The notes beneath the pieces are model-generated. The model saw nothing but the letters and a program-made list of their open reading frames with translations. It searched no databases and was not told where the DNA came from. This document shows, piece after piece, positions 6,963 to 63,908 of a stretch of 64,000 nucleotides of DNA (the first letter of the stretch is position 1; each line of letters starts with the position of its first letter). The DNA lies in the NCBI GenBank assembly GCA_046160345.1, contig JBJXGO010000027.1, forward strand, positions 20,135 through 84,134, written 5' to 3'. The stretch comes from Saprospiraceae bacterium. Lineage in GTDB: Bacteria > Bacteroidota > Bacteroidia > Chitinophagales > Saprospiraceae. Made by a program: the position numbers and the translations under genes.

Positions 6963-6985
6963 CCGCCGCTTTTGAAAAAAGCATT

Positions 6986-7067
6986 GTCTCATTAGCTCAG
7001 TTGGTTAGAGTCCCGATTTGGATCGGGATTAATCCGCAGGGCCAAGGCTCAAGTCCTTGATGGGTCG
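6986..7067 (+). pseudogene. Degenerate tRNA-Asn-like copy whose anticodon arm 5' half is replaced by a small hairpin
   Basis: The acceptor 5' strand, the D-arm (gtctcattagctcagttggttagag) and the 3' part (taatccgcagggccaaggctcaagtccttgatgggtcg) match the adjacent tRNA-Asn. However, 'cggcggactgt' is replaced by the hairpin tcccgatttggatcgggat. No 7-nt anticodon loop can be drawn, and the acceptor stem has a T-T mismatch. Confidence 0.6.
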
Positions 7068-7087
7068 AGTAAGAAGAAAAAAGCATT

Positions 7088-47856: not shown

Positions 47857-48246
47857 ATGTTATACAAAATCAATTCCGAAGAAGAATACCGTCAGGTCAT
47901 GGAAAAAGTGGAGACATATCTCCAAAGGGCCACTCATCACGGAGGGTTTCAAAGCCTGAATTCCACGGAACAGGATGAATTACACCATTTGTCTCTACTC
48001 GCTGAGGCCTGGGAAGATGGCATTCCACTCATGCCCATTCGTCAGCCGAAAACGCTGGTGGAAATGCTCGAATTGAAAATGTACGAGCGCAAACTCAAAC
48101 AAAAAGATCTGGCAGAATTACTGGGCGTTTCAGCTACCCGCCTTTCGGAAGTAATGCAAGGAAAGCGTAAGGTAAATATGGATTTGGCAAAGCGGCTTCA
48201 CACAGTGTTGAAAATTGATGCGGGGTTTATTTTGGAGCAGGCGTGA
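47857..48246 (+). CDS. higA: HigA-type antitoxin / XRE-family HTH protein
   Basis: It has an HTH segment (LKQKDLAELLGVSATRLSEVMQGKRKVNMDLAKRL) and sits immediately after the higB remnant. Confidence 0.75.
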   Translation: MLYKINSEEEYRQVMEKVETYLQRATHHGGFQSLNSTEQDELHHLSLLAEAWEDGIPLMPIRQPKTLVEMLELKMYERKLKQKDLAELLGVSATRLSEVMQGKRKVNMDLAKRLHTVLKIDAGFILEQA

Positions 48247-51166
48247 GTTCGTTCTTCAAAAACTTCCCTGTCCAGCTCTCCTCCACCTTTGCCACCTCCT
48301 CCGGCGTACCCTCCGCCACGATCTTTCCCCCTCGAAAACCTCCCTCCGGCCCCACATCAATAATGTGATCGGCCATTTTTACCACGTCGAGGTTGTGCTC
48401 GATTACGATGACCGTGTTGCCTTTTTCCACCAACTTGTTTAATACGGTAAGTAGTTGGCGGATGTCTTCAAAATGCAGGCCTGTGGTGGGCTCGTCGAGG
48501 ATGTAAATGGTGCGTCCCGTGTCTTTTTTGGAGAGTTCTTCAGCCAGTTTTACGCGTTGTGCCTCACCGCCTGATAGGGTAGTGGCCTGTTGGCCCAAGG
48601 TTATGTAACCTAGGCCTACGTCTTGCAAGGTCTTGATTCTCCGATAGATGTTCGGGATAGGTTGAAAAAATTCTGCCGCCTCGTGTATGGTCATGTCGAG
48701 CACATCGCTGATGCTTTTGCCTTTGTAGAGTACTTCCAGGGTTTCGCGGTTGTAGCGGCGGCCCTGACAACGTTCGCAATGCACCTGCACATCAGGCAGG
48801 AAATTCATCTCGATGGTTCGCAGGCCAGCACCTTCGCAGACTTCGCAACGACCACCCTTAACATTGAACGAAAAACGCCCGTTGGCATAGCCCCGGATTT
48901 TGGCTTCCGGCGTGTCGGCAAATAGCTTTCGGATGTCGCCAAAAACGTTCGTGTAAGTCGCAGGGTTACTTCTTGGGGTTCGCCCGATAGCACTTTGGTC
49001 TATCTCAATTACCTTGTCGAGGTTTTCCAAACCCTTGATATTCTGATACTTGAGTGGGCGTTTAAGGCTGTTGTGAAAATTGCTTTGCAGGATAGGGTAC
49101 AAGGTCTCGTTAATAAGCGAGGACTTGCCGGAGCCGCTCACCCCGGTGATGCAGATGAAAGTGCCGAGCGGAATTCGAAGCGTTACCGCTTTCAAATTAT
49201 GTCCCGTGCAGCCTTCGAGTTCGAGCCAGTGTCCATTGCCTTTTCGGCGGACTTTGGGAATATCGAGTTTAGAACGACCTGCGAGATAGTCGGAAGTTGC
49301 GGTGGGTTTTTTTAGAAATTCTGCAGGTTTTCCTATATCCACGATTTGGCCGCCGTGCTTGCCCGCGCCAGGGCCAAGGTCAATCAGGTAATCGGATTCC
49401 AGCATGATGTCTCGGTCGTGTTCCACTACCAGAACGGTATTGCCTATGTCGCGCAGGTTTTTCAATGCCTCGATGAGGCGGTGGTTGTCGCGCTGGTGCA
49501 GGCCAATACTCGGCTCATCAAGGATATATGTGATGCCCGTGAGTTGTGAACCAATTTGGGTGGCGAGGCGAATCCGTTGGCCTTCTCCCCCTGACAGGGA
49601 TCGTGCTGGCCGGTCAAGTGCCAGGTAGTCCAGGCCAACCTGCAGCAGGAATTTGAGTCGGAAACGGATTTCTTTCAGCACGTCTTTGGCGATTGTTCGC
49701 TGGCGTTCGCTCAGGTTTTCATCTACATTTTCCAGGGTGGCGTAGAGTTCAGCCAGATCCATTTGAGCCAGTTCGGCGATGTTGCGCTCGGCAATTTTGA
49801 ACCATAAACTTTCCCTTTTCAAGCGAGTGCCGTCACAATCCGGGCAAGGTACGATTGCAATAAAATCCTCTGCCCACTGCCGGGCTTTTTCGCTGGTAGC
49901 TTCTACATACTGGCGTTTGATCACGTTGATCAGGCCATCGAAAGCCATATCGTAACTCCACTCCTCTCCGCCCCACATCATATCCACCTTGATTTCGTCG
50001 CCACCATGTAGGATGGCGTTCAGCACATTTTCAGGCAGTTCTTTTACGGGCGTACTGAAGGAAAAGTTGTACTTTTTCGACAATGCCCGAAGTTGTTTGA
50101 AAAGCATGTTTTCACGGACTTCGCCCAATGGAACAATTGCTACCTCGTTGATACTCTTGGTGTTGTCTGGAATAACCCGCGCCATGTCCACCTCATGAAT
50201 TTCGCCCAATCCTTTGCATTGCGGGCACATTCCATAGGGCGAGTTGAAAGAAAAAGTGTTGGGCGAGGGTTCGTCGTAGGAAAGCCCGGTGTCCTGGCAC
50301 ATCAAATTTTTTGAAAAACTGGCCAGATCACCATTTTCGAGTTCTAAGATCTGAATCAGCCCATCGCCCAATTTCAAAGCCATGTTCAGGCTTTCGGCCA
50401 GCCGTTCATTCCGGTCGTCTCCTACTTTCAAGCGGTCCACCACGATCTCGACATCGTGAATTTTGTAACGGTCGAGTTGCATTCCAGGCGTGATCTCCAG
50501 CATTTCTCCGTCCACACGAACCCGGGTATAGCCTTGTTTCCGGATTTGCTCGAAAAGTTCGCGGTAGTGTCCTTTTCTGGAGCGCACAACGGGCGAGAGC
50601 AGCGCGATCTTCTGACCTGCAAACCGCTCAGTAATATTTTCTACGATCTGCTCCTCCGTATATTTCACCATCTTTTTCCCTGTCTCATAGGAGTATGCTT
50701 CACCCGCGCGGGCAAAAAGCAAACGCAGGAAATCGTACACTTCTGTCACTGTACCAACGGTAGAACGCGGGTTGCGGCCGGTGGTTTTTTGCTCAATGGA
50801 AATGACCGGAGAAAGCCCTGTAATTTGATCTACATCAGGGCGTTCCATCTCGCCGATGAATTGGCGTGCATAACTGGAAAGTGTTTCCATGAATCGCCGT
50901 TGGCCTTCGGCGTATATGGTGTCGAAGGCGAGGCTCGATTTGCCTGAACCACTCACCCCCGTAATAACCACCAGTTGATTGCGCGGGATCTGTACGTCCA
51001 CATTCTTCAAATTGTGGGCGCGTGCACCGATGACTTCGATAAAGTGGTTATTGGCGACTGGTGATTGGTTACCGGTTATTGGTGACTGGTTATTGGTAAT
51101 TGGTGACTGGTGGTCAGTCACAGAAACAGTACTTAGGGATGCTATTTGTGCTTTTGCTTTTGCCAT
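48227..51166 (-). CDS. uvrA: Excinuclease ABC subunit A, with repeat-encoded N-terminal extension
   Basis: The 979-aa product has GARAHNLKN, two ABC ATPase modules (GVSGSGKSS twice; LSGGE twice) and zinc-finger CxxC pairs. The first roughly 40 aa (…DHQSPITNNQSPITGNQSPVANNH) come from the heptamer repeat. Confidence 0.95.
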   Translation of the reverse strand: MAKAKAQIASLSTVSVTDHQSPITNNQSPITGNQSPVANNHFIEVIGARAHNLKNVDVQIPRNQLVVITGVSGSGKSSLAFDTIYAEGQRRFMETLSSYARQFIGEMERPDVDQITGLSPVISIEQKTTGRNPRSTVGTVTEVYDFLRLLFARAGEAYSYETGKKMVKYTEEQIVENITERFAGQKIALLSPVVRSRKGHYRELFEQIRKQGYTRVRVDGEMLEITPGMQLDRYKIHDVEIVVDRLKVGDDRNERLAESLNMALKLGDGLIQILELENGDLASFSKNLMCQDTGLSYDEPSPNTFSFNSPYGMCPQCKGLGEIHEVDMARVIPDNTKSINEVAIVPLGEVRENMLFKQLRALSKKYNFSFSTPVKELPENVLNAILHGGDEIKVDMMWGGEEWSYDMAFDGLINVIKRQYVEATSEKARQWAEDFIAIVPCPDCDGTRLKRESLWFKIAERNIAELAQMDLAELYATLENVDENLSERQRTIAKDVLKEIRFRLKFLLQVGLDYLALDRPARSLSGGEGQRIRLATQIGSQLTGITYILDEPSIGLHQRDNHRLIEALKNLRDIGNTVLVVEHDRDIMLESDYLIDLGPGAGKHGGQIVDIGKPAEFLKKPTATSDYLAGRSKLDIPKVRRKGNGHWLELEGCTGHNLKAVTLRIPLGTFICITGVSGSGKSSLINETLYPILQSNFHNSLKRPLKYQNIKGLENLDKVIEIDQSAIGRTPRSNPATYTNVFGDIRKLFADTPEAKIRGYANGRFSFNVKGGRCEVCEGAGLRTIEMNFLPDVQVHCERCQGRRYNRETLEVLYKGKSISDVLDMTIHEAAEFFQPIPNIYRRIKTLQDVGLGYITLGQQATTLSGGEAQRVKLAEELSKKDTGRTIYILDEPTTGLHFEDIRQLLTVLNKLVEKGNTVIVIEHNLDVVKMADHIIDVGPEGGFRGGKIVAEGTPEEVAKVEESWTGKFLKNELTPAPK
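51046..51115. repeat. Heptamer tract (TTGGTNA units) inside the 5' end of uvrA
   Basis: The sequence is ggttattggcgactggtgattggttaccggttattggtgactggttattggtaattggtgactggtggtc. Three heptamers make 21 nt, which gives the QSPITNN peptide repeat. Confidence 0.8.
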
Positions 51167-53483: not shown

Positions 53484-54326
53484 TCAGGCTCCGGGCCTGG
53501 TGTTTTTTACGGTACGCTCAACTTTAGCCATGCCTGACTCAAAATTATTGCCTGCGATATCAACCGTTAAAACTTCTTGCAATCGTGTCATGATTTTAGG
53601 CAAGTTTTGTCTGAGCCCCTGGAGGCGTTGCCGCTTGGGGATGAGATCGTCGTCCGGGAGGTGCAATTTTCTCCTTTTTTGGGTATCTGCTTCTAAATCT
53701 TGAAGTTTTTTGTCAATATCCTCCACAACGCTATAAATAAAACCATCTTTGAACACCTCATTATCAAGCATTACGGGAATAAATTGCCGCCCCCCGAATA
53801 GACTGGAATAAAAAGCGAGGTCATTTTCTAATCCTACCCACCCTGAGCGCAGACTGTTGCGAGACACTACTGAAAGAATAATGCCTTCTTCCTGCATCAC
53901 GCGATGGATGAAAGCCTGAATACTCTCCCCGGCATGCATATCTTCAGTGTCTCGTATCACCCGAAGGCCTTTTTCTTCCAGATATGATTCTATATTGTCC
54001 ACAGCCTCTCGGTCACCATGGTTGTAGGAGATGAACACACTGTGGAAGGATTCGTTGGGTGCATCAGCGGGTTCGGGTGCAGGCCGAGAGGTTTCGGCGT
54101 CCCTTTGAACAGCTGCCTTGTCAGCAACTTCAAGCAGCGCATAATTTACCTGTGCCTGCAGGCGGCTCCAATCATCAAAGCCAATAAGGCCCATGTTGTA
54201 GTTCTTTTTTCCGCTGGCATAGCGTGCCTGAAGCAGTACGGCGTCATTGGCGTTGTGGGCGACCAAGAGCTGGAGTGCATCTTCGGTCTGACCGGAGGCA
54301 ATAAGTTGTTGGATTTGTTCGCGCAT
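53484..54326 (-). CDS. TIR-domain protein with N-terminal helical adaptor-like module and C-terminal coiled coil
   Basis: The 280-aa product has a TIR core SVFISYNHGDREAVDNIESYLEEKGLRVIRDTEDMHAGESI...ILSVVSRNSLRSGWVGLENDL. The N-terminal roughly 75 aa (IQQLIASGQTEDALQLL...LLQARYASGKKNYNMGLIGFDDWSRLQAQVNYALLEV) resemble short helical 'effector-associated' adaptor domains. Confidence 0.8.
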   Translation of the reverse strand: MREQIQQLIASGQTEDALQLLVAHNANDAVLLQARYASGKKNYNMGLIGFDDWSRLQAQVNYALLEVADKAAVQRDAETSRPAPEPADAPNESFHSVFISYNHGDREAVDNIESYLEEKGLRVIRDTEDMHAGESIQAFIHRVMQEEGIILSVVSRNSLRSGWVGLENDLAFYSSLFGGRQFIPVMLDNEVFKDGFIYSVVEDIDKKLQDLEADTQKRRKLHLPDDDLIPKRQRLQGLRQNLPKIMTRLQEVLTVDIAGNNFESGMAKVERTVKNTRPGA

Positions 54327-54351
54327 ATAAAATTACATGTTTTGGGAGCAC

Positions 54352-54359
54352 CAAAGGTA
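54352..54359 (-). promoter_or_regulatory. Candidate -7 box (TACCTTTG on minus strand) for the TIR gene
   Basis: The reverse complement of caaaggta fits TAnnTTTG. It lies 26 nt upstream of the ATG at 54326. Confidence 0.4.
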
Positions 54360-54395
54360 GAATGTTTATTTAGTGCGAAAACCCATTCATCGTGC

Positions 54396-54403
54396 TAATT
54401 TTG
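54396..54403 (+). promoter_or_regulatory. Candidate -7 box (TAATTTTG) for the LRR-Roc-COR-TIR gene
   Basis: The TAnnTTTG match lies 23 nt upstream of the ATG at 54426. It is back-to-back with the box at 54352-54359. Confidence 0.4.
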
Positions 54404-54425
54404 CTTTTGAAAAAACATTTATCCA

Positions 54426-57400
54426 ATGCATAAAACGCCCACCCCTGAACTTGCCCTACTACTCATCCAGCAAAACCTGGATCAACTAAGCCGAGGGGAG
54501 GATGCCTCATTTCTCGACCTAGGCAATTGTGGTCTAACGTGCATACCCAGCGAACTAGCCGGCCTCAAGCATCTGAAAGCGCTCAACCTGGGGCAATTTT
54601 TTGTGAAATATACGGGTAGGAAAACAATCAATTTGGAACAGTATTACCCAAAAGATTTTTCAGAATTCTTAATTCAAGAAAGTAACAATAAAGGCGCTGT
54701 TAATCGCCTTTCCGCTGAAGATTTAAGTGAAATTGGCTTAAACAGTGAAATTTGTTGTCTATACTTGACTAATCTTCAATTGAAGGATATTGGCGCACTT
54801 AACTCATTTCCCAATTTAGAAGTTTTGTATCTAGGTAATAATGAATTGACAGATATTTCCCCCTTACGGTCGAATGTAAAACTGCGTGACTTATCATTAG
54901 TGCAAAATAAGATTTCAGATTTGTCACCCCTTTCTAATCTAAATAAATTAGAAACCCTTAATTTAAGTAGAAATAAGGTTTCAGACCTTTCGACTTTGGC
55001 AGGATTAAAAAATCTGTCTATGCTATTCATTGGCAATAATTTAGTGTCGGACCTTAGACCAATTGCTTCATTTTCTAAACTGCGACTCTTAGTGGCTTTT
55101 GAGAATAATATCTCTTCGCTGGATCCCCTAAATAATTTGGTACACTTAGAACGTATACATTTAGCATCGAACCAGATAAGCAATGGAATACCTTTACAAA
55201 AGTTATTAAAGGTAAAAGAATTAAACCTACGAGCCAATCAGATTAAAGATATTTCATTCTTATCTTCCATGCTAAATCTTACAATATTAGATATGGGAAA
55301 CAATGTAATAGATTTTTTACCTCCAACGCTTTCTTTACCCTATTTAACTAGTTTATATTTCGGAAATAATCGAATTTCCGATATAAGCCCTTTAAGCGCA
55401 TTTCCCGCGCTTGAAGTACTTGACCTTTCACGAAATCAGATAATAGATATAGCACCACTGCAAAATCTATCGCTAGGCAATCTAGTTCTTACTGGTAACA
55501 ACATCCAAGACATTAAGCCACTCGGCAGCCTTAAAGAGATTGGCATACTTAGTTTGGAGCATAATAAAATTGAATATATAGAGCCGTTTGCATTCGCATT
55601 TACCTCACCCGTAGTGTTGCGATTAGCTGGCAACCCTATCAAAGATATCCCGCTTGAATTAGTTGTTTCGGACAATATTTTGAAAAGAACAAGCTCCACT
55701 GAGATAGATGCCTACTTCAAATCCATTGAGGGAGAAAAAGATGTCGTCCATGCTGCCGAAGTAAAAATCATTCTGGTCGGCAATAGTACAGCCGGGAAAA
55801 CCTCCCTTTCCCGGGTATTGCGCGGACAGCCATTACCAAGCCTGGAGACCTCTACACATGGCATTCAGATACATCAATGGAAAATCCGAAGCAGTGATTT
55901 TCTCGATGTTAAACTCGTGCCAGACACGCCCGAGCAGATTACCGTGAACATCTGGGATTTTGGCGGTCAGGAGTATTACCATGGAACGCACCAACTTTTT
56001 CTTGACAACAACGCCATTTATATATTGGTCTGGGAACCAAGTACCAACCAAAGCGCCGTGGTAGGCACCGAGTATGTCATTCCCGGAGATGTTCCTGAAA
56101 AATTGACTCTACCAGTGGAACAATTCCACTACCGATATTGGCTTGACAGCATTCGTTTCTATGCCAGTGCTCAAAGTGACAGTCCGCCGCCGCCTATATT
56201 TATGGTGCAGAACAAATTGGATAAAGAAGGCAGCAAAGTCACTTGGCCCGAGGCAATAATATTCGAATCTTATAAAGTGGAGGATGCGACGGCACTGAGC
56301 GCCTTCTTGGCCCTATCGCAAAAAACTGCAGATCGAGCCTATCACCATCGCTTCCAAATTTTTCTCGACAAACTGCTGTGTGCCATCCGTCAAAAAGCCC
56401 TGGAAAACCTTGGCCGTGACCGACTTGCGGCCTCTTGGCAACATATTCGCAAAGCGATCCAAGAGGCTACGGACAAGGACACGAGTAAAAAGGCACTTGC
56501 AAAAAATCCATTTGCCCGATCAGCCGATGAAAGCCAATCGCTCGAAGCAGAAAAATTTAGACAAGCATGCCGCGATGTGATCGCGCCCGCTATTATTACC
56601 GATGGCGAGATAGATACGCTGGTTCGTTATCTTAACAGCGTCGGCGCGGTATTTTACAACCCGGCGGTAGTAAACCGCGTGTATCTGCGGCCTACCGTGC
56701 TCACGGAAAAGATTTACCAGATACTTAATCAGGAAGTGTTGCGCAGAAAAGGCCGTTTTACCCAATCAGAAGCAAGTCGCGCCTTGGGCAGAAATCAGGG
56801 TAAATATGCCAAGTTATTAATTGGACTTATGGCCCGCTGGGAAATAATTTTTCCAGCTCCGTCAGCTGCTGCGACCCCTATAAGCGCCTTGCGTTCGGCA
56901 CCAGTTCCGAAAGGCCCAAGCCCTGAAGAAGAGTGGATCGCTACGCAGTATCTTCCCGACGATCACCCGCTGGAAGGTCTGTATCAAATTGCAGCAAGCG
57001 GTTTGGAACAAAACTATTTTATCGTTCGAAGCCCGCTGTTTCATTTTAAAAAAGCGTTGCGCCAATTGGTGTTTTCGATTGGCAATGATTCCAAGGTGCG
57101 CAACAAGGAGTTTTGGAAATATGGCATCCTTTTTACTTCCGTAGAAGGCAATCTTCGGGTGTTGGTTAAGGGAGTCAGGGAAGAAAATTTTGGCCAGATC
57201 CTTGTTTATGTGGAACAGAGGCCTGAAAACGGTATAACGACACAATGGGAAGGAGAGGTGTTTGAGCGGATCATCAGCGCGATGACCGAAAATATGCATC
57301 CTTTTTCCGCTCCCAACCCTACTCAGGTCAGTCAAACCAATAACACAGATGTTTTTATTCGCAGGGCAGAAAAGGCCGCTTCGCCTCAAATTTCTCGCAA

Positions 57401-58016
57401 TGGAATTGATTTTGTCCGGATACCGGATTTGTTAGAACAAGTACGCAACGAGGTTATTTTGGTGCCCTCCTACAAAAAAGACGGTAGTGCGGGAAAAATT
57501 CTGAGCATGGCTGACTTTGCCCCATTCTTGAAGGCATTCGGCCAAAAACCGCCGAAACCGACTATTTTTATGTCCTATTCGCACGAAGATTTAAAGTTGC
57601 GCGAAGAACTGGGCATTTATCTAGGCCCTGTCATCAAGCGCCTCAAGCAAGCCGATATCTGGCACGACGGGCTCATCAAACCCGGTGAGCCCTGGGATGA
57701 AGCCATCAAATCGAAACTTCGTAAGGCGGATGTAGTATTGCTTTTGATCAGTGCTCATTTTATCGATTCAGATTATAGCTGGGACAGCGAGATGCTTCCT
57801 GCGCTCGAACGGCATAAGCTGGGAGAGGCTCGCGTTATCCCCATACTTTTGTCTGATTGTAAATGGGAGGATTCGCCTTTTGCCGAATTGGAAATGGTGC
57901 CCAAAGAACCACAGAATGCCAGGCTTTTGCCTGTTACAGAATGGGATCATCGTGCAAAAGCACTCACTACGGTGGTTAAGCGTATCCAAGAGGTTTTGCA
58001 GGAGATGAAAATTTAA
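54426..58016 (+). CDS. ROCO-type multidomain protein: about 14 LRRs + Roc (Ras-like) GTPase + COR-like region + C-terminal TIR domain
   Basis: The 1196-aa product has 22-aa LRR units (LxxLxLxxNxIxDIxPLxxLxx) from about aa 100 to 415. The GTPase motifs are G1 GNSTAGKTS (55779-55805), G3 DFGGQ (55956-55970) and G4 NKLD (56211-56222). The C-terminal TIR reads TIFMSYSHEDLKLREEL...ADVVLLLISAHFIDSDYSWDSEM...VIPILL. Confidence 0.85.
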   Translation: MHKTPTPELALLLIQQNLDQLSRGEDASFLDLGNCGLTCIPSELAGLKHLKALNLGQFFVKYTGRKTINLEQYYPKDFSEFLIQESNNKGAVNRLSAEDLSEIGLNSEICCLYLTNLQLKDIGALNSFPNLEVLYLGNNELTDISPLRSNVKLRDLSLVQNKISDLSPLSNLNKLETLNLSRNKVSDLSTLAGLKNLSMLFIGNNLVSDLRPIASFSKLRLLVAFENNISSLDPLNNLVHLERIHLASNQISNGIPLQKLLKVKELNLRANQIKDISFLSSMLNLTILDMGNNVIDFLPPTLSLPYLTSLYFGNNRISDISPLSAFPALEVLDLSRNQIIDIAPLQNLSLGNLVLTGNNIQDIKPLGSLKEIGILSLEHNKIEYIEPFAFAFTSPVVLRLAGNPIKDIPLELVVSDNILKRTSSTEIDAYFKSIEGEKDVVHAAEVKIILVGNSTAGKTSLSRVLRGQPLPSLETSTHGIQIHQWKIRSSDFLDVKLVPDTPEQITVNIWDFGGQEYYHGTHQLFLDNNAIYILVWEPSTNQSAVVGTEYVIPGDVPEKLTLPVEQFHYRYWLDSIRFYASAQSDSPPPPIFMVQNKLDKEGSKVTWPEAIIFESYKVEDATALSAFLALSQKTADRAYHHRFQIFLDKLLCAIRQKALENLGRDRLAASWQHIRKAIQEATDKDTSKKALAKNPFARSADESQSLEAEKFRQACRDVIAPAIITDGEIDTLVRYLNSVGAVFYNPAVVNRVYLRPTVLTEKIYQILNQEVLRRKGRFTQSEASRALGRNQGKYAKLLIGLMARWEIIFPAPSAAATPISALRSAPVPKGPSPEEEWIATQYLPDDHPLEGLYQIAASGLEQNYFIVRSPLFHFKKALRQLVFSIGNDSKVRNKEFWKYGILFTSVEGNLRVLVKGVREENFGQILVYVEQRPENGITTQWEGEVFERIISAMTENMHPFSAPNPTQVSQTNNTDVFIRRAEKAASPQISRNGIDFVRIPDLLEQVRNEVILVPSYKKDGSAGKILSMADFAPFLKAFGQKPPKPTIFMSYSHEDLKLREELGIYLGPVIKRLKQADIWHDGLIKPGEPWDEAIKSKLRKADVVLLLISAHFIDSDYSWDSEMLPALERHKLGEARVIPILLSDCKWEDSPFAELEMVPKEPQNARLLPVTEWDHRAKALTTVVKRIQEVLQEMKI

Positions 58017-58059
58017 AAAGGGTTGGTTTTTTGGAATGGAGGAGATTACCTTTGCGGCC

Positions 58060-58242
58060 CGTTTACCCGCCGTAGCCTTGGCGAAGGCGGGTTTGGCCCT
58101 AAACGGCACACCCTTTGTTAAAGTTGGGTGGAAACAGGAAACCCGCCTACGCCCCTGCCCGCCCCTGCCCGCCAAGGCTCGACAGGCGGGAAGGCTGGCA
58201 AATAGAAGAAAACCCGCCTTCGCCAAGGCTACGGCGGGTAAA
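58060..58242. repeat. GC-rich structured repeat (element A) immediately upstream of tRNA-Val
   Basis: A perfect 33-bp inverted repeat (58060-58092 tttacccgccgtagccttggcgaaggcgggttt versus 58210-58242) encloses a core (cccgcctacgcccctgcccgcc aaggctcgacaggcgggaaggctggcaaatagaag). That core recurs in element B. Confidence 0.8.
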
Positions 58243-58316
58243 CGGGTCATAGCTCAGTTGGTTAGAGCGCCACGTTGACATCGTGGAGGTCACAGGTTCG
58301 AATCCCGTTGATCCGA
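58243..58316 (+). tRNA. tRNA-Val (anticodon GAC)
   Basis: I folded it by hand: acceptor cgggtca/tgatccg, D-arm gctc-agttggtta-gagc, anticodon stem ccacg/cgtgg with loop ttGACat, T-arm acagg-ttcgaat-cccgt (one mismatch). Confidence 0.8.
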
Positions 58317-58320
58317 CTTG

Positions 58321-58453
58321 CCCGCCGAAGCCCGGTTAGGGCGAAGGCGGGGCAAAGAAAACCCGCCTACGCCCCTGTCCGCCAAGGCTCGACAGGCGGG
58401 AAGGCAGGCAAATAGAAGGAAACCCGCCTTCGCCCTAAACGGGCTTCGGCGGG
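58321..58453. repeat. GC-rich structured repeat (element B) immediately upstream of tRNA-Pro
   Basis: A 31-bp inverted repeat (58321-58351 versus 58423-58453, one mismatch) flanks the same roughly 70-nt core as element A. Confidence 0.8.
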
Positions 58454-58457
58454 TAAA

Positions 58458-58531
58458 CGGGACGTAGCTCAGCCCGGTAGAGTACACGTCTGGGGGGCGT
58501 GTGGTCGCAAGTTCGAATCTTGTCGTCCCGA
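58458..58531 (+). tRNA. tRNA-Pro (anticodon GGG)
   Basis: I folded it by hand: acceptor cgggacg/cgtcccg, D-arm gctc-agcccggta-gagt, anticodon stem cacgt/gcgtg with loop ctGGGgg, T-arm gcaag-ttcgaat-cttgt. Confidence 0.8.
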
Positions 58532-58555
58532 CTGTTGATTTTAAGCGAGTTATTC

Positions 58556-59366: not shown

Positions 59367-60929
59367 ATGGCATGCAATATCACAATATTGAGTGTTCTCG
59401 GAACGACAGATGATGCAGGTGTACTAGTTAGTGTCACAGTCCAAGGCACTGCCCAAGATTGTACATCGCTCAAAGTAACATTGGTCTGTTCTGGACACCA
59501 CGTACAAGAAACATTGGATAATCCGGATGCGATTTGGTCGGTCACTTTTGCTGACCCGCCGGGTTGTATCTGCGACAACAACGTGATTGTAAAAGCGGAG
59601 TGCGAGGGGAATCCGAGTTGCACGGCCGTTTTCGAAGATGAATTGGATTGCCTTTGTTTGGAAGCCAGCGATATCGGTGTTGCTCCCTCTGACTGTAACG
59701 ATGAAGGTACCGAACGCGAAATGATTTTCACTTTTCCGGCTGGAACCGCTGGCAATTTGGATTATGGTGACGGGAATAACGCAGGTTTTGCAGGTGTCAT
59801 GTTAACTCATTTCTATATTCCGGGAGTTTATGATGCAATACTGAGTATAGATGGCTGCCCGGATATTTCCATTGAAGTCCATGTTCCTGAGTGCCTGCCC
59901 ACGGGTGCGTGCTGCTTTAAGGATAAGCGCTGTCAGTTGCTAACCGAAGCGGAGTGTATTGAGCAAGGCGGCGAATACCTAGGGGATGGCAAGACGTGCG
60001 ACGAGTGCCCACCCCCACTCACAGGTGCATGCTGCTTTAAGGACGGGCACTGCGAAGAAGGGCTGACCGAGGAGGAATGTCGTGCACAAAGTGGCGAATA
60101 CAGAGGGAATGGCACGACGTGCGCCGACTGCCCACCACCGCCTACGGGTGCATGCTGCTTGCCGGATGGGACTTGCGAGTTGTTGACCCAACGTGTGTGT
60201 GAATTAGAGCGGCATGGCGAATGGAAAGGTCCTGACTCAACTTGCGCCGATTGTCCGCCTCCACCCCCGCCCACGGGTGCATGCTGCTTTACGGATAGGC
60301 CCTGCGCACTTCTGACCGAAGAAGAATGCCGTGACCAAGGTGGCGAATACAGAGGGAATGATACGATGTGCGCCGACTGCCCGCCCACGGGTGCATGCTG
60401 CTTTACGGATAGGCCCTGCGCACTTCTGACCGAAGAGGAATGCCGTGTCCAAGGTGGCGAATACAGAGGGAATGATACGACGTGCGCTGATTGTCCGCCC
60501 ACAGATGACGATGATGACCGCAGTGACCGGGGCGGCTGTTTAAGTGTTAACTGCGCAACGTTGCTCTATGCCGCAATCAGTGCACTTATTATAGCAAGCA
60601 TCCTTGCAATTATCGGATGTTATGTTCCGGTGATATTGATCGTTGCTATTATCGCCGGTATAGTAGCGTTAATGCTTTTTGGCCTTTGGGCTTTGTTTTG
60701 TTACAGGTTTACACCATGTTGGGTGATGCGAAGAGTCCAATGTTTTTTGTGGTGGATGGTCGCTAGGATCATACCGGGTATCCTTATTATTGAAGTAGTG
60801 TTACTCATTTTCGGCGTTGATATATGCCCCTTGTTGGCAACGTTGGCTGCGGCGGCTGGCTGGGCATTTATATATGCCAACCTTAACGATGTAATGCGGA
60901 GGGTTGACTGCGAGCGTATTTGCCCCTAG
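59367..60929 (+). CDS. Cys-rich repeat protein: N-terminal Cys-rich region + PKD-like segment + five 'TGACC' six-cysteine repeats + Asp-rich linker + 4-5 C-terminal TM helices
   Basis: It is 520 aa. The PKD-like signature is DYGDGNNAGFAGVMLTHFYIPGVYDAILSIDG. The repeats follow TGACCfxDxxCxxLTEEECxxQGGEYRGNxTxCADCPP. The TM helices include LLYAAISALIIASILAIIGCYVPVILIVAIIAGIVALMLFGLWALF. No N-terminal signal peptide is visible, and an in-frame stop lies at 59301. Confidence 0.75.
   Translation: MACNITILSVLGTTDDAGVLVSVTVQGTAQDCTSLKVTLVCSGHHVQETLDNPDAIWSVTFADPPGCICDNNVIVKAECEGNPSCTAVFEDELDCLCLEASDIGVAPSDCNDEGTEREMIFTFPAGTAGNLDYGDGNNAGFAGVMLTHFYIPGVYDAILSIDGCPDISIEVHVPECLPTGACCFKDKRCQLLTEAECIEQGGEYLGDGKTCDECPPPLTGACCFKDGHCEEGLTEEECRAQSGEYRGNGTTCADCPPPPTGACCLPDGTCELLTQRVCELERHGEWKGPDSTCADCPPPPPPTGACCFTDRPCALLTEEECRDQGGEYRGNDTMCADCPPTGACCFTDRPCALLTEEECRVQGGEYRGNDTTCADCPPTDDDDDRSDRGGCLSVNCATLLYAAISALIIASILAIIGCYVPVILIVAIIAGIVALMLFGLWALFCYRFTPCWVMRRVQCFLWWMVARIIPGILIIEVVLLIFGVDICPLLATLAAAAGWAFIYANLNDVMRRVDCERICP
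59901..60500 (+). repeat. Five tandem coding repeats (120, 123, 129, 114, 114 nt) encoding the TGACC six-Cys module
   Basis: The units start at 59901, 60021, 60144, 60273 and 60387. The last two units differ at only a handful of nucleotides. Confidence 0.85.
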
Positions 60930-61181: not shown

Positions 61182-63908
61182 ATGGAAATCCTATCTGAAA
61201 TAATAGTCTTAAGGAATGAAGAGCAATATTTGCTCTCTGCTGGCGAGGAGGTGAGTTTCCCTTTCGACTGGCCTAATGGAATCCTCGTGGATCCGAATGT
61301 AGACCCGTCTTCACATTCATATTTGTTGCACTATCAAGTTGAGAGCATGAACGCTAGCGATGGCGAAATCGCCGTATATATCAATAATAGTGACGGGCAG
61401 GCGGTTCACACAGAGACTTTCCGTTCGGGGAGCGAAAATGTATTTGTGGAAGGGATTCTTCCGGCGGACGTTTTCAATAACCTCCCGGAAACGAATACCT
61501 TTGTTTTTAGACTGGAAAGCCCGGCGGGCAGCACCATCACGTTTTCCAACGTGTTGCTGTGGTTTCCGGTTCAGGGAAAACAGACCCTTGGAACAAATGT
61601 CAAAGCCGCGCCCTTCTTTGCCCGTGGAGATGGAGTTTCTAACGACACCGACGCAATCCAGAAAGCGATAGAATATGTTTGGGCTAAACGCGGCGGTGGT
61701 ACGCTATTATTCCCCGCCGGAGAGTACGTCATCTACGCCCCCGGACTCGTCATTCCACGTGGAGGGTATGATAAAAGGCTGATATTCCGCGGCGAAGGAC
61801 GGAGTGCTACTTTATTGTCCGGCGGCAGCGGCGACCATCGCCTCGACTCCTATACGCCTCTAATCCGCTATGATGACGACTCCAATCAACATGCCTACAA
61901 CCATATTTGGGAAGACATGACGATAGAACGCGGAAATCCAGGGCCGGTCTTTGTCCACGCTCATTCTCACAGTGATTTAGAACAGAGAGCTATTGGTTGT
62001 GTATTTCGCAATATAGAGTTCCGGAGCCTTAGCCGTATCAGAATTAAACTTGACAATGATAATAATAAACTAGATAATGATAATAACACTGTCAGTATTA
62101 ATGATATTATTATTAACTATACTGATTTCTTTACCGCCCTAGACGAGGGGCAAGTACCCGACAACCTCGACAACCTGCTGCATCTGGAAGATTTATTTCC
62201 AAAATTAGGTGAACAAATACCGACCAGAGAGGCTTATGTGGAAGTCGAACAACTTGGATGCAGGTGGACAATTGTCGATGTAAAACCTGAAGAAAATGAG
62301 GCAACGGAGTATGTCATCCGAAAATTCATACCATTACCAATAGATGCCAATCACCAACCAGAACTCAATGTGCACTTGGGCACAGGCCTTATGTTTAGCC
62401 TTGAACGCCTGTATATAAATACCTGGATTAAAGTACTGGATACAGTGGGATTATTGGCTATCTCCTGCTTCTTTAGAGCACACGACATAACTCTTACGAA
62501 CAATGCTACTTTTGAAGTCCAACAAACTGGCAAAAAATGGAAGATTATTGATTCCTTCAAGGTTTATATTATCCAGAAGGCGGACCAAACACTCAACGTT
62601 TTTCAGGACGATGATAAAATCTTTGGAATTGGGTTTGATGAACTGATTTACGAAATTGACAAAGAGAAAGTTTCCGGAGTACTTTGCCTATTTGAATCAC
62701 ACGGCCAAATCCTTTCAGAGAATGCCATTATTAAAGTCATAAAAACCGGAAATAGATGGAAAGTCCTTGATTTAGGCAAGGAATATGTCATCTGGAAAGT
62801 GGACGATAGGCTCTACGTTTACCTTAGCAGAGCGGCGACGCGAATAGAAGGAATGCTTAACTGCGTCCTCGACACGGTGTCCATTAATGGCGGCGTGACA
62901 GCACTCCGTTTGGAAGGCTCACACTTCACGACTATCAACCTACATACCACCGACGATCATAGTCAAGTGAACGCCATCGATGTCGACGGCCGTAACGCGA
63001 CAATGATCAGCACCCGGATAGAGGCTTGTGAGGGTGGCTACGGCCTGCGTCTCAATAACTCCCATAACGTCGTCCTCGAGGGCATCTGGTTTGAGGGCAA
63101 ACGAACACATCCGCGAATCGAGATAATGGATGGCTCATACGGCATCACGATTCTAAATCCTGCGTTAGCGCAACCGAGCATGGAGCATATTATCGGCCTT
63201 CTGGTGCATCGCGGCGTGTCAAACGTCCGGGTGATTGGTGGCGTGACAGGGAATTTCAAGGATACCCATGGCTGCTATGCGCTGAAAGTTGAAAATGGGG
63301 CTCGGCAGATACATATAGAGCGGCTTGATGGACTCCTTGGCATGTCGAGTAACGGCTCCTTCGGGAAGGCTTGCTGGGTCGAAGAGGGCGCCTACGATGT
63401 GGTCATCGAAGCCAATATTAACGGTGCGAAAGGTGACCAGATTGTTTACAAGGCGGGACTAATTTGGTCCGCCACTAATTATGAAGGTAATACAAGCCCC
63501 GACTTTCGAATAGACAATTTCGATATTTTCAACGTCGAGTATGAGGTGGTCGGTGATATCAAGCGAATAGTGTATGGTGGCGAGCCAAGCGGTTACGAAG
63601 GCCAGATCATAAGGCTGCTATTTAAGAACGGCAACGCGACCGTCAAAAGCTGCGAAGGAAATATTCGACTCAGCGACAATGCCCACTTTGATTCGCATGA
63701 AGGCGACACCCTTTCGCTTATCTGCAACGGCAAGGATGAGTGGTTCGAAATCGGACGGAGCAGAGGGTGTAAATGTCCGCCAACGAATTATCCGCCTATT
63801 CCGCAAGATAATGTGCTTCCAGATTGGTTGAGCTGGGTGATAGGCCCGATAAATGACTGGTTGAGAGATCTTAAAGATCGGTTGAGAGGCCTGCTGCGCC
63901 GTTTATGA
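61182..63908 (+). CDS. Pectate_lyase_3-type right-handed beta-helix protein (tailspike/depolymerase-like) with inserted triple repeat
   Basis: It is 908 aa. The sequence ARGDGVSNDTDAIQKAIEYVWAKRGGGTLLFPAGEYVI is the classic N-cap of the pectate-lyase-3/tailspike family, and PbH1-like coils follow at aa 550-780. An insert of about 260 aa carries three related modules (VEQLGCRWTIVD...YVIRKF; VQQTGKKWKIID...YIIQK; VIKTGNRWKVLD...YVIWK). No signal peptide is visible. Confidence 0.75.
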   Translation: MEILSEIIVLRNEEQYLLSAGEEVSFPFDWPNGILVDPNVDPSSHSYLLHYQVESMNASDGEIAVYINNSDGQAVHTETFRSGSENVFVEGILPADVFNNLPETNTFVFRLESPAGSTITFSNVLLWFPVQGKQTLGTNVKAAPFFARGDGVSNDTDAIQKAIEYVWAKRGGGTLLFPAGEYVIYAPGLVIPRGGYDKRLIFRGEGRSATLLSGGSGDHRLDSYTPLIRYDDDSNQHAYNHIWEDMTIERGNPGPVFVHAHSHSDLEQRAIGCVFRNIEFRSLSRIRIKLDNDNNKLDNDNNTVSINDIIINYTDFFTALDEGQVPDNLDNLLHLEDLFPKLGEQIPTREAYVEVEQLGCRWTIVDVKPEENEATEYVIRKFIPLPIDANHQPELNVHLGTGLMFSLERLYINTWIKVLDTVGLLAISCFFRAHDITLTNNATFEVQQTGKKWKIIDSFKVYIIQKADQTLNVFQDDDKIFGIGFDELIYEIDKEKVSGVLCLFESHGQILSENAIIKVIKTGNRWKVLDLGKEYVIWKVDDRLYVYLSRAATRIEGMLNCVLDTVSINGGVTALRLEGSHFTTINLHTTDDHSQVNAIDVDGRNATMISTRIEACEGGYGLRLNNSHNVVLEGIWFEGKRTHPRIEIMDGSYGITILNPALAQPSMEHIIGLLVHRGVSNVRVIGGVTGNFKDTHGCYALKVENGARQIHIERLDGLLGMSSNGSFGKACWVEEGAYDVVIEANINGAKGDQIVYKAGLIWSATNYEGNTSPDFRIDNFDIFNVEYEVVGDIKRIVYGGEPSGYEGQIIRLLFKNGNATVKSCEGNIRLSDNAHFDSHEGDTLSLICNGKDEWFEIGRSRGCKCPPTNYPPIPQDNVLPDWLSWVIGPINDWLRDLKDRLRGLLRRL
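62046..62087 (+). repeat. 21-nt tandem duplication in an AT-rich stretch of the beta-helix gene (KLDNDNN x2)
   Basis: The two adjacent units are aaacttgacaatgataataat and aaactagataatgataataac. Confidence 0.8.

Follow-up and report, generated by a model that had tools for sequence, protein, structure and literature searches.

A ROCO-TIR GTPase gene and a divergent EAD11-TIR gene in a Saprospiraceae genome: adjacent and probably separable members of a predicted effector class

The two genes, their spacer and their products

We analyzed a stretch of 64,000 nucleotides from a Saprospiraceae bacterium (assembly GCA_046160345.1, contig JBJXGO010000027.1, positions 20,135 to 84,134; hereafter the window, in whose own numbering all unlabelled positions are given), which carries two divergently transcribed genes. 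The plus-strand gene (54426-58016) encodes a 1196-residue ROCO protein with leucine-rich repeats (LRRs), a Roc GTPase, a COR region and a C-terminal TIR domain (ROCO-TIR; assigned from the open reading frame (ORF), Pfam, an AlphaFold2 (AF2) model and Foldseek), and the minus-strand gene (53484-54326) encodes a 280-residue protein with an EAD11 domain, a linker and a TIR domain with a helical tail (EAD11-TIR). Both genes are real and intact, and both ORFs lie at the positions given for them by an earlier sequence-only reading, which had described the pair as a candidate novel immune or conflict system. The 99-bp spacer (54327-54425) likewise contains the back-to-back TAnnTTTG boxes which that reading had pointed out. 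A pattern match identified them as TACCTTTG at 54352-54359 (minus strand, 25 nt ahead of the small-gene ATG) and TAATTTTG at 54396-54403 (plus strand, 22 nt ahead of the ROCO ATG). In Bacteroidota promoters, TAnnTTTG serves as the -7 element. Across the window, the pattern is only mildly enriched (60 observed vs 46 ± 6 expected); both boxes are kept in the orthologous spacers of three related loci (L003, L001 and L010), and this conservation supports a real divergent promoter region of the Bacteroidota type. A scan for sigma-70 promoters and terminators gave no enrichment and is uninformative for a Bacteroidota genome.

The presumed sensor of the ROCO-TIR protein is a block of 14 internalin-like, 22-residue LRRs (aa 101-415; 54726-55670; LRR_4 2.3e-51, internalin_A-like). 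In the AF2 model (predicted local distance difference test (pLDDT) 85.5, predicted template-modelling score 0.70), 14 LRR beta-strands follow a 22-residue period over residues 111-397, in agreement with the count of about fourteen proposed from the letters; a strict regular expression found 10. The repeats are followed by the Roc GTPase (aa 444-640; 55755-56345) and by COR-A plus COR-B (aa 641-955; 56346-57290). Pfam matches above the gathering score comprise LRR_4/LRR_8, Roc at 447-542 (6.7e-18; 65.5 bits vs a cutoff of 27), COR-A at 697-813 (2.2e-10; 41.1 bits vs a cutoff of 35.3) and TIR_2 at 1047-1156 (5e-12). Pfam COR-B has no match in the window ROCO and is detected in relatives; a RocCOR hidden Markov model (HMM) spans aa 444-953, and the assignment of both COR parts is also based on structural alignment with the LRR-Roc-COR of Chlorobium tepidum Roco (CtRoco). 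The nucleotide motifs GNSTAGKTS (452), DFGGQ (511) and NKLD (596) are present, as had been claimed. In an alignment of 36 ROCO-TIR relatives, G452, G457, K458 (the P-loop lysine, codon 55797-55799), T459, switch I T477 and switch II D511-Q515 are invariant, and N596 of the G4 motif is at least 90% conserved. By these sequence criteria, the large protein qualifies as a true ROCO, its GTPase motifs being intact.

Foldseek comparison of the AF2 model with the PDB placed the CtRoco crystal structure (6hlu_A, LRR-Roc-COR) on top (E 1.3e-41, TMt 0.70, about 1066 aligned columns), with the LRRK2 structures 8tzf and 7li3 next. The window ROCO has in common with CtRoco, LRRK2 and LRRK1 the LRR-Roc-COR tandem, with G1, switch I, switch II and G4 motifs intact, but differs in its output, which is a TIR domain rather than the kinase of LRRK2, CtRoco having no catalytic output. 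It further differs in an extra alpha/beta domain of about 90 residues ahead of the TIR (aa 956-1044; 57291-57557), delimited by AF2 secondary structure. The COR-like region, which had been put at roughly 550 residues, accordingly shrinks to about 315 residues (641-955) followed by this separate domain. The alpha/beta domain diverges fast (75, 43 and 35% identity to three orthologues). It has a confident AF2 fold and no Pfam match, and takes the same position as EAD11 in two relatives, P0047 and P0082. A cryptic EAD11 was also considered as a candidate in this protein and rejected: a relaxed hmmsearch of residues 1-130 returned E > 1, and hhalign of regions 1-105 and 950-1046 gave a probability below 1%, with P0082 detected as the positive control.

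The C-terminal domain of the ROCO (aa 1045-1196; 57558-58013) has its best defence-database match in the PADLOC ThsB model PDLC00420 (1.2e-35). A profile search, the check by which the TIR assignments had been left to stand or fall, scored the two TIRs at 46.8 and 70.1 bits against the TIR_2 cutoff of 28. In the ROCO TIR, F1048, S1050, Y1051, D1081, W1090 and the putative catalytic E1122 (codon 57789-57791) are invariant in 36/36 relatives, and the HMMER alignment pairs E1122 with the glutamate of Cat1 (WCWD-EL) and of AbTIR (WTNYEL). In the small protein, the alignment of 38 homologues shows the putative catalytic E167 of the SGWVGxE motif (codon 53826-53828, minus strand) to be at least 90% conserved, and S161-G162-W163 are conserved as well. 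The sequence-only reading had put this glutamate of both TIRs in an S-x-W-x(3)-E motif; the conserved glutamate stands in both, whereas the strict motif does not, for the ROCO spacing is W+3 (YSWDSEM) and its alignment needs a one-residue indel. Thus, as judged from profiles and residues, both C-terminal domains are TIRs with a conserved glutamate at the catalytic position, and nicotinamide adenine dinucleotide (NAD) hydrolase activity is predicted for them. Sequence and structure matches of the locus TIRs include Cat1, PdTIR, AbTIR and SPARTA. The TIR fold and the catalytic-position glutamate are common to ThsB, AbTIR, Cat1 and the TIR-APAZ of SPARTA; unlike in these bacterial TIR NADases or signal generators, the TIR of the large protein is fused to a Ras-like GTPase sensor and is neither free-standing nor carried on an Argonaute or CARF protein.

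The small protein has 117 homologues, mainly in Saprospiraceae and Lewinellaceae. In its AF2 model (pLDDT 84.6), EAD11 has four helices, the linker is disordered, and the TIR core is followed by three helices at the C-terminus. The N-terminal part is helical as first described, but it is not an anonymous module: it corresponds to Pfam EAD11 (PF19964, residues 3-70, 6.9e-14; our own HMM 6e-33), an adaptor domain occupying aa 1-71 (54114-54326, minus strand) with helices at 2-10, 14-23, 27-44 and 50-79. The Pro/Ala linker is found at residues 73-94, with pLDDT below 50 at 79-90. The TIR core follows (aa 95-205; 53712-54044, minus strand; TIR_2 at 97-205, 3.1e-19, above the gathering score), and its top Foldseek matches are the TIRs of RPS4, Cat1, SPARTA and Roq1 (probability 1.00 to RPS4, Cat1 and SPARTA), with plant NLR TIRs and AbTIR also among the matches. 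The tail (aa 206-275; 53502-53711, minus strand; sTail HMM 3e-27) had been taken for a coiled coil. It consists of three helices (196-220, 228-251 and 259-275) that align largely inside the approximately 190-column Foldseek matches to plant TIR domains; the tail thus belongs, at least in part, to the alphaD/alphaE region of an extended TIR. Furthermore, the tail is conserved along with the TIR even in homologues lacking EAD11 (Flavobacteriia and Cytophagales loci).

Evolution of the LRR block and relatives of the two proteins

We compared the window ROCO with three orthologues domain by domain. The closest, P0002, is 82-88% identical in Roc, COR and TIR vs 46% in the LRRs, and over all three the LRRs are 46, 50 and 32% identical, against 59-88% for Roc, COR and TIR. 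P0003 is nearer to the window ROCO than P0002 in the LRRs (50%), yet farther elsewhere (61-72%), so that the history of the LRRs is incongruent with that of the rest of the protein. Composition differs as well: the GC content of the LRR part is 0.33-0.38 vs about 0.48-0.50 in its flanks, which puts figures to an AT-richness previously judged by eye, and GC at third codon positions (GC3) is 0.30 in the LRRs, 0.43 in the N-terminal cap and 0.45-0.51 in the downstream domains. In P0004 the LRR value is 0.25 vs 0.66-0.71, in P0002 it is only slightly lower than elsewhere (0.46 vs 0.49-0.56), and in the EAD11-bearing P0006 there is no GC3 dip in the LRRs. The low-GC3 mosaic together with the incongruent identities points to exchange of LRR cassettes, and these sequence patterns suggest swapping of the kind expected for an arms-race sensor. 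The compositional mosaic of the ROCO gene was seen in the window LRR block (54726-55670) and also in L001 and L003.

Homologues of the ROCO vary in what accompanies the core, with a C-terminal TIR, EAD11 followed further on by TIR (EAD11-...-TIR), C-terminal EAD11-TIR, C-terminal EAD11, a TIR at both ends (TIR-...-TIR), or none of these. An N-terminal EAD11 is found in P0005-P0008, the sister clade of the window ROCO; EAD11 sits between COR and TIR in P0047 and P0082, and takes the place of the TIR in P0064. The last of these lies in a defence island (L090, 1-24521) with a VapE-like primase, a 445-residue EAD11 protein, type I restriction-modification HsdM/S/R, the ROCO-EAD11, McrBC, a second ROCO with C-terminal EAD11, and nSTAND3. 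In a Cytophagales locus (L062, 5759-10531), a 1590-residue LRR-Roc-COR protein is fused through a helical linker to a TIR and tail of the small protein's type. PIN-like genes stand just downstream of this fusion. The ROCO and EAD11-TIR families are thus connected at the family level, as far as sequence relationships go.

EAD11-TIR also occurs with another kind of core. A Lewinellaceae locus (L026, 6191-10816) has three consecutive genes for SIR2_2+EAD11, nSTAND1+FGE-sulfatase (FGS) and EAD11-TIR; by its domains it is a predicted EAD11-coupled STAND system with two NAD-targeting effectors. Three more loci (L017, L028 and L046) have an EAD11 ORF upstream of EAD11-TIR at the same spacing. Together with the EAD11 domains of ROCOs, loci of this type make EAD11-TIR look like a portable effector for more than one kind of NTPase core. 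The domain itself splits into two subfamilies: the core-type EAD11s fused to ROCO and SIR2 are 17-29% identical to the effector-type, and contain an insert, and the two copies in L026 are about 28% identical across these types. EAD11 was further found in proteins of 265-281 residues on IMG/VR contigs (L183, 3246-3449; L184, 5001-5807; L185, 4992-5789) and on a phage-like 75-kb contig (L188, 10001-10846), represented by P0234-P0236. These EAD11s are 56-66% identical to the effector-type EAD11 of the window, and are followed by a C-terminal domain of about 190 residues unrelated to TIR. INPHARED cultured-phage genomes gave no match for the small protein. One might speculate from these sequences that the phage-like proteins act as viral decoys of the adaptor. 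If this were true, such EAD11-only mimics would be a prokaryotic parallel of the CARD-, DED- or Pyrin-only decoys known from viruses.

Linkage of the two genes and interpretation of the locus

Kaur, Iyer, Burroughs and Aravind (eLife 2021; PMC8195603, Fig. 6D and Fig. 6 source data) presented AP-GTPase (Roc)-COR proteins as predicted counter-invader systems. According to this paper, the N-terminal LRRs of the bacterial proteins evolve rapidly, their C-terminal position is taken by at least 24 alternative domains, including TIR and 'different EADs', and Haliscomenobacter hydrossis has 11 AP-GTPase+COR paralogues (PMC8195603). The searched part of its table lists LRR+AP-GTPase+COR+TIR proteins in Nostoc (Npun_F6039), Haliscomenobacter (Halhy_6078 and Halhy_6543), Archangium, Methanosarcina and Aquaspirillum, and +COR+EAD11 and +COR+EAD11+TIR architectures in Haliscomenobacter and a Saprospiraceae metagenome-assembled genome (PMC8195603). 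EAD11 appears in the supplements, mostly in the AP-GTPase (Roc) table, and not in the main texts (PMC8195603). EADs, which are small and helical, have been proposed to link effectors with NTPase cores through homotypic interactions like those of Death, CARD and Pyrin domains (PMC7159879). Because LRR+AP-GTPase+COR+TIR was already listed in 2021, the locus belongs to a known, computationally predicted kind: it falls in the class of predicted immune or cell-suicide systems catalogued then, Saprospiraceae examples included, and the novelty first attributed to it is not supported. The window ROCO matches that class in its fast-evolving N-terminal LRRs, Roc, COR and variable C-terminal effector, effector displacement is seen here among the ROCO homologues, and the phylum and family neighbourhood is the same. 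It differs in that this ROCO lacks EAD11 and a stand-alone EAD11-TIR gene lies divergent beside it, an arrangement absent from the searched part of the published table. Our literature search on bacterial Roco and ROCO-TIR proteins in phage defence returned nothing beyond two papers from the Aravind laboratory, and the searched literature contained no experimentally established physiological role for bacterial Roco proteins.

We then consider how far the two genes belong together. The divergent pair recurs in L001/L002 (ROCO 50%, small protein 73% identity), in L003, which is the same locus as L092 (71% and 82%), and in L010 (small protein 72%, ROCO cut by the contig end). All of these linked loci have S9-peptidase synteny in common, which marks them as one narrow Saprospiraceae clade. 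Three further loci (L005, L173 and L174; 57-59% identity) keep the synteny of UvrA, S9 peptidase and an intact EAD11-TIR gene without a ROCO. In L005, a tRNA-Val/Val/Pro cluster directly abuts the EAD11-TIR gene, and tblastn found no ROCO remnant there, only the tRNA cluster being homologous. In the window, tRNA-Val(GAC) (58243-58317) and tRNA-Pro(GGG) (58458-58532), both on the plus strand by ARAGORN, stand just downstream of the ROCO gene, in keeping with the tRNA cluster noted earlier beside the locus, and this pair (58243-58532) forms the distal boundary of the ROCO indel. The absence of ROCO from the syntenic loci indicates that this gene is an indel, gained or lost between the tRNA cluster and EAD11-TIR, the latter probably being the older, separable resident of the site. 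Neither target-site duplications nor direct repeats were found flanking the ROCO gene, only REP-like GC-rich palindromes around the tRNAs.

A linkage scan with purpose-built HMMs covered 80 species-representative EAD11-TIR loci and 80 metagenomic ROCO loci. Roc-COR lies within 10 kb of EAD11-TIR in 2/80 of the former (L010 and L062), and an EAD11-TIR-tail neighbour lies beside ROCO in 1/80 of the latter (L092). The sequence-only reading had called the small gene a second TIR partner and had named conserved co-occurrence in advance as the measure of that; co-occurrence turned out poor, with linkage essentially limited to the window's own clade. Furthermore, neither a relaxed HMM search nor profile-profile comparison found EAD11 in the window ROCO or in its three orthologues, and no further EAD11 or EAD-bearing core was found within the 64-kb window. 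The same EAD on both NTPase core and effector, by which EAD coupling is recognized, is thus absent here and present in L090, L026 and P0005-P0008. From these comparisons, the case for the two genes as a dedicated pair is weak.

We favour, at a probability of roughly 55%, the reading that the ROCO-TIR protein is a self-contained sensor-switch-effector and the EAD11-TIR protein a separable, adaptor-linked effector. The locus would then hold two members, adjacent but probably separable, of the class in which an NTPase switch is combined with an adaptor and an effector, predicted by Kaur et al. (2020, 2021) to comprise counter-invader or programmed-death systems. In this scheme, the fast-evolving LRR horseshoe would bind a ligand derived from an invader or from stress, and binding would be coupled to the Roc-COR GTP/GDP cycle and to a change of oligomeric state, by analogy with the biochemistry of CtRoco and LRRK2. 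TIR NADases require oligomerization. By analogy with this requirement, the ThsB-like TIRs might be brought together into an active NAD+-cleaving assembly, with NAD+ depletion (abortive infection or cell suicide) or an ADP-ribose (ADPR)-derived signal as the outcome. The 280-residue protein, as a trans-acting TIR effector, would dock through its EAD11 onto EAD11-bearing NTPase cores, which in relatives are ROCOs or nSTAND1-FGS proteins, and it would be the older resident of the site beside UvrA and the S9 peptidase, the ROCO-TIR gene having been gained or lost between it and the tRNA cluster. Since the window ROCO has no EAD11, cooperation between the two products would need TIR-TIR contacts or a core encoded elsewhere. 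The view of the large protein as an LRR sensor, GTPase switch and TIR effector, first put forward from the letters, fits the domain order, the fast LRRs and the displacement of the C-terminal effector. Its likening to STAND/NLR-like proteins stands as a functional analogy only: EAD-coupled STAND (nSTAND1-FGS), Avs and bNACHT systems similarly have a repeat or lectin sensor, an NTPase switch, a suicide effector and helical adaptors in trans, but here a Ras-like Roc GTPase with COR serves as the switch, and a STAND core (NACHT, NB-ARC or AAA+) is absent. The identities of the domains, the intactness of their catalytic and GTPase motifs, the fold matches, the hypervariable and mosaic LRRs, and the distribution and architectures of homologues are observed, whereas the sensing of a ligand, gating by GTP, NADase activity, EAD11 pairing and a role in immunity are inferred.

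Several points weigh against this reading. EAD11 pairing is itself a computational prediction only, and no biochemical or phage-challenge evidence for a bacterial ROCO-TIR appeared in the searched literature. The window locus is not in a defence island, and in a descriptive census without a control set, ordinary genes make up most of the neighbourhoods of 16 distant ROCO-TIR loci. The divergent arrangement with its conserved spacer in four loci, and the L062 protein in which a ROCO is fused to the small protein's TIR and tail, would both fit a tighter pairing. Such a pairing could amount to a dedicated two-gene system, with EAD11-TIR as the obligate partner of ROCO-TIR, a shared divergent promoter and a hetero-oligomeric TIR enzyme, or, in variants, with the small protein as an amplifier, a filament extender or a second enzyme with a different product. 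Its strongest points are the retention of the pair and both promoter boxes in four loci at the identities given above, the L062 protein as a Rosetta-stone fusion, and the ROCO paralogues in which EAD11 is N-terminal, lies after COR and ahead of the TIR, or substitutes for the TIR, architectures that the searched part of the published table also contains (PMC8195603). However, the common S9-peptidase synteny means that simple vertical inheritance in one clade could explain the adjacency of the four loci; the small gene persists intact without ROCO in L005 and L173/L174; linkage is rare in both directions of the scan; and the predicted docking route is missing, since neither the window ROCO nor its three orthologues carry EAD11. 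We consider a dedicated system unlikely.

Signalling of the Thoeris type is very unlikely in our estimate. The ROCO TIR would in that case make a messenger of the cyclic-ADPR or His-ADPR type, read by an effector elsewhere or by the helical tail of the small protein. Several bacterial TIRs are signal generators, and the ThsB match of the ROCO TIR, together with weak matches of the small protein to the Thoeris type III ThcB4 and SAVED-TIR models, would agree with such a role. Against it, the ThsB-model matches span only the generic TIR core, and a ligand-binding domain is detectable in the small protein neither by Pfam nor by Foldseek. In addition, no ThsA-type receptor (SIR2, Macro or transmembrane with SLOG), SAVED or caspase-like effector was found in the 27.9-64 kb surveyed; unlike in Thoeris, the ThsB-like TIR here has no adjacent ThsA, its neighbours being the S9 peptidase, UvrA, the tRNAs, a Cys-rich ORF without a Pfam match and a pectate-lyase-like ORF. 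Equally improbable to us is a non-immune role, whether in endogenous signalling or developmental cell death in filamentous, multicellular Saprospiraceae, or as non-enzymatic TIR scaffolds with a self-binding LRR. The small gene does occupy a fixed site by housekeeping genes across relatives 57-82% identical, and the window around the pair is housekeeping in character (UvrA, S9 peptidase, a class Ib (Trp/Tyr-type) tRNA synthetase, YceD, type IX secretion cargo proteins and tRNAs). Many ROCO-TIR neighbours elsewhere are two-component regulators and metabolic genes, and Kaur et al. tie these systems to the multicellular habit (PMC7159879). These points are opposed by the conservation of the catalytic-position glutamate in both TIR families (E1122 invariant, E167 at least 90%), by the LRR hypervariability and mosaicism typical of arms-race sensors, by the L090 defence island, by the close EAD11 mimics on phage-like contigs, and by relatives on plasmids, where distant Roc-COR relatives and related TIRs were found.

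An extended form of the favoured reading would make the ROCO a GTPase-gated immune receptor with a cassette-swapped LRR, EAD11-TIR an effector shared by ROCO and nSTAND1-FGS cores in trans through an asymmetric pairing of core-type with effector-type EAD11, and the phage EAD11-only proteins mimics that counter it. Cassette swapping would explain both the low-GC3 mosaic and the incongruent LRR phylogeny; as a whole, we hold this extended form to be unlikely. As the class was predicted in 2021 and this is one of many such genes, the window adds a well-characterized exemplar and not a new principle. What is added here is the older, separable EAD11-TIR, the mosaic LRR sensor, the split of EAD11 into core-type and effector-type subfamilies, and effector-type EAD11 mimics as a lead to possible anti-defence decoys. 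Bacterial Roco proteins are prokaryotic homologues of the Parkinson's disease kinase LRRK2 and are used as structural models of it. The predicted TIR NADase output would provide a simple biochemical read-out, both for the role of ROCO and for the question of Roc-COR gating.

Genomic surroundings of the pair

Whether homologues sit in defence or in housekeeping contexts had been named beforehand as a test of the immune reading. The window itself is housekeeping, and the contexts of relatives are mixed: L090 is clearly a defence island, and others lie among housekeeping genes. Some of the same 16 distant ROCO-TIR loci have restriction-modification, Avs4-like, LmuA, DRT-like reverse transcriptase or nSTAND neighbours; because the census had no matched control, we claim no defence enrichment for ROCO-TIR neighbourhoods.

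Between the ROCO gene and the second tRNA gene (58036-58460), GC-rich REP-like palindromes, including a perfect 37-nt inverted repeat (58058-58094 / 58210-58246), stand ahead of each of the two tRNA genes together with a repeat unit some 210 nt long, and similar elements occur in the L005 tRNA cluster. Further downstream, a 520-residue ORF (59367-60929) without a Pfam match combines five tandem Cys-rich repeats (TGACCFxDxxCxxLTEEECxxQGGEYRGN..CADCPP) with a hydrophobic C-terminal region. The 908-residue ORF that follows (61182-63908) has only a short pectate-lyase/RHGA-like match (PF12708, 3.7e-08), and its exact sequence is not on record in a large protein collection. At the other end of the window, ARAGORN reports an 84-nt tRNA-like gene (6985-7068) with a two-base anticodon call, directly upstream of tRNA-Asn. 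Finally, NQSPIT-like repeats (SPITNNQSPITGNQSPVANN) make up a low-complexity insertion in the N-terminal part of UvrA (48227-51166).

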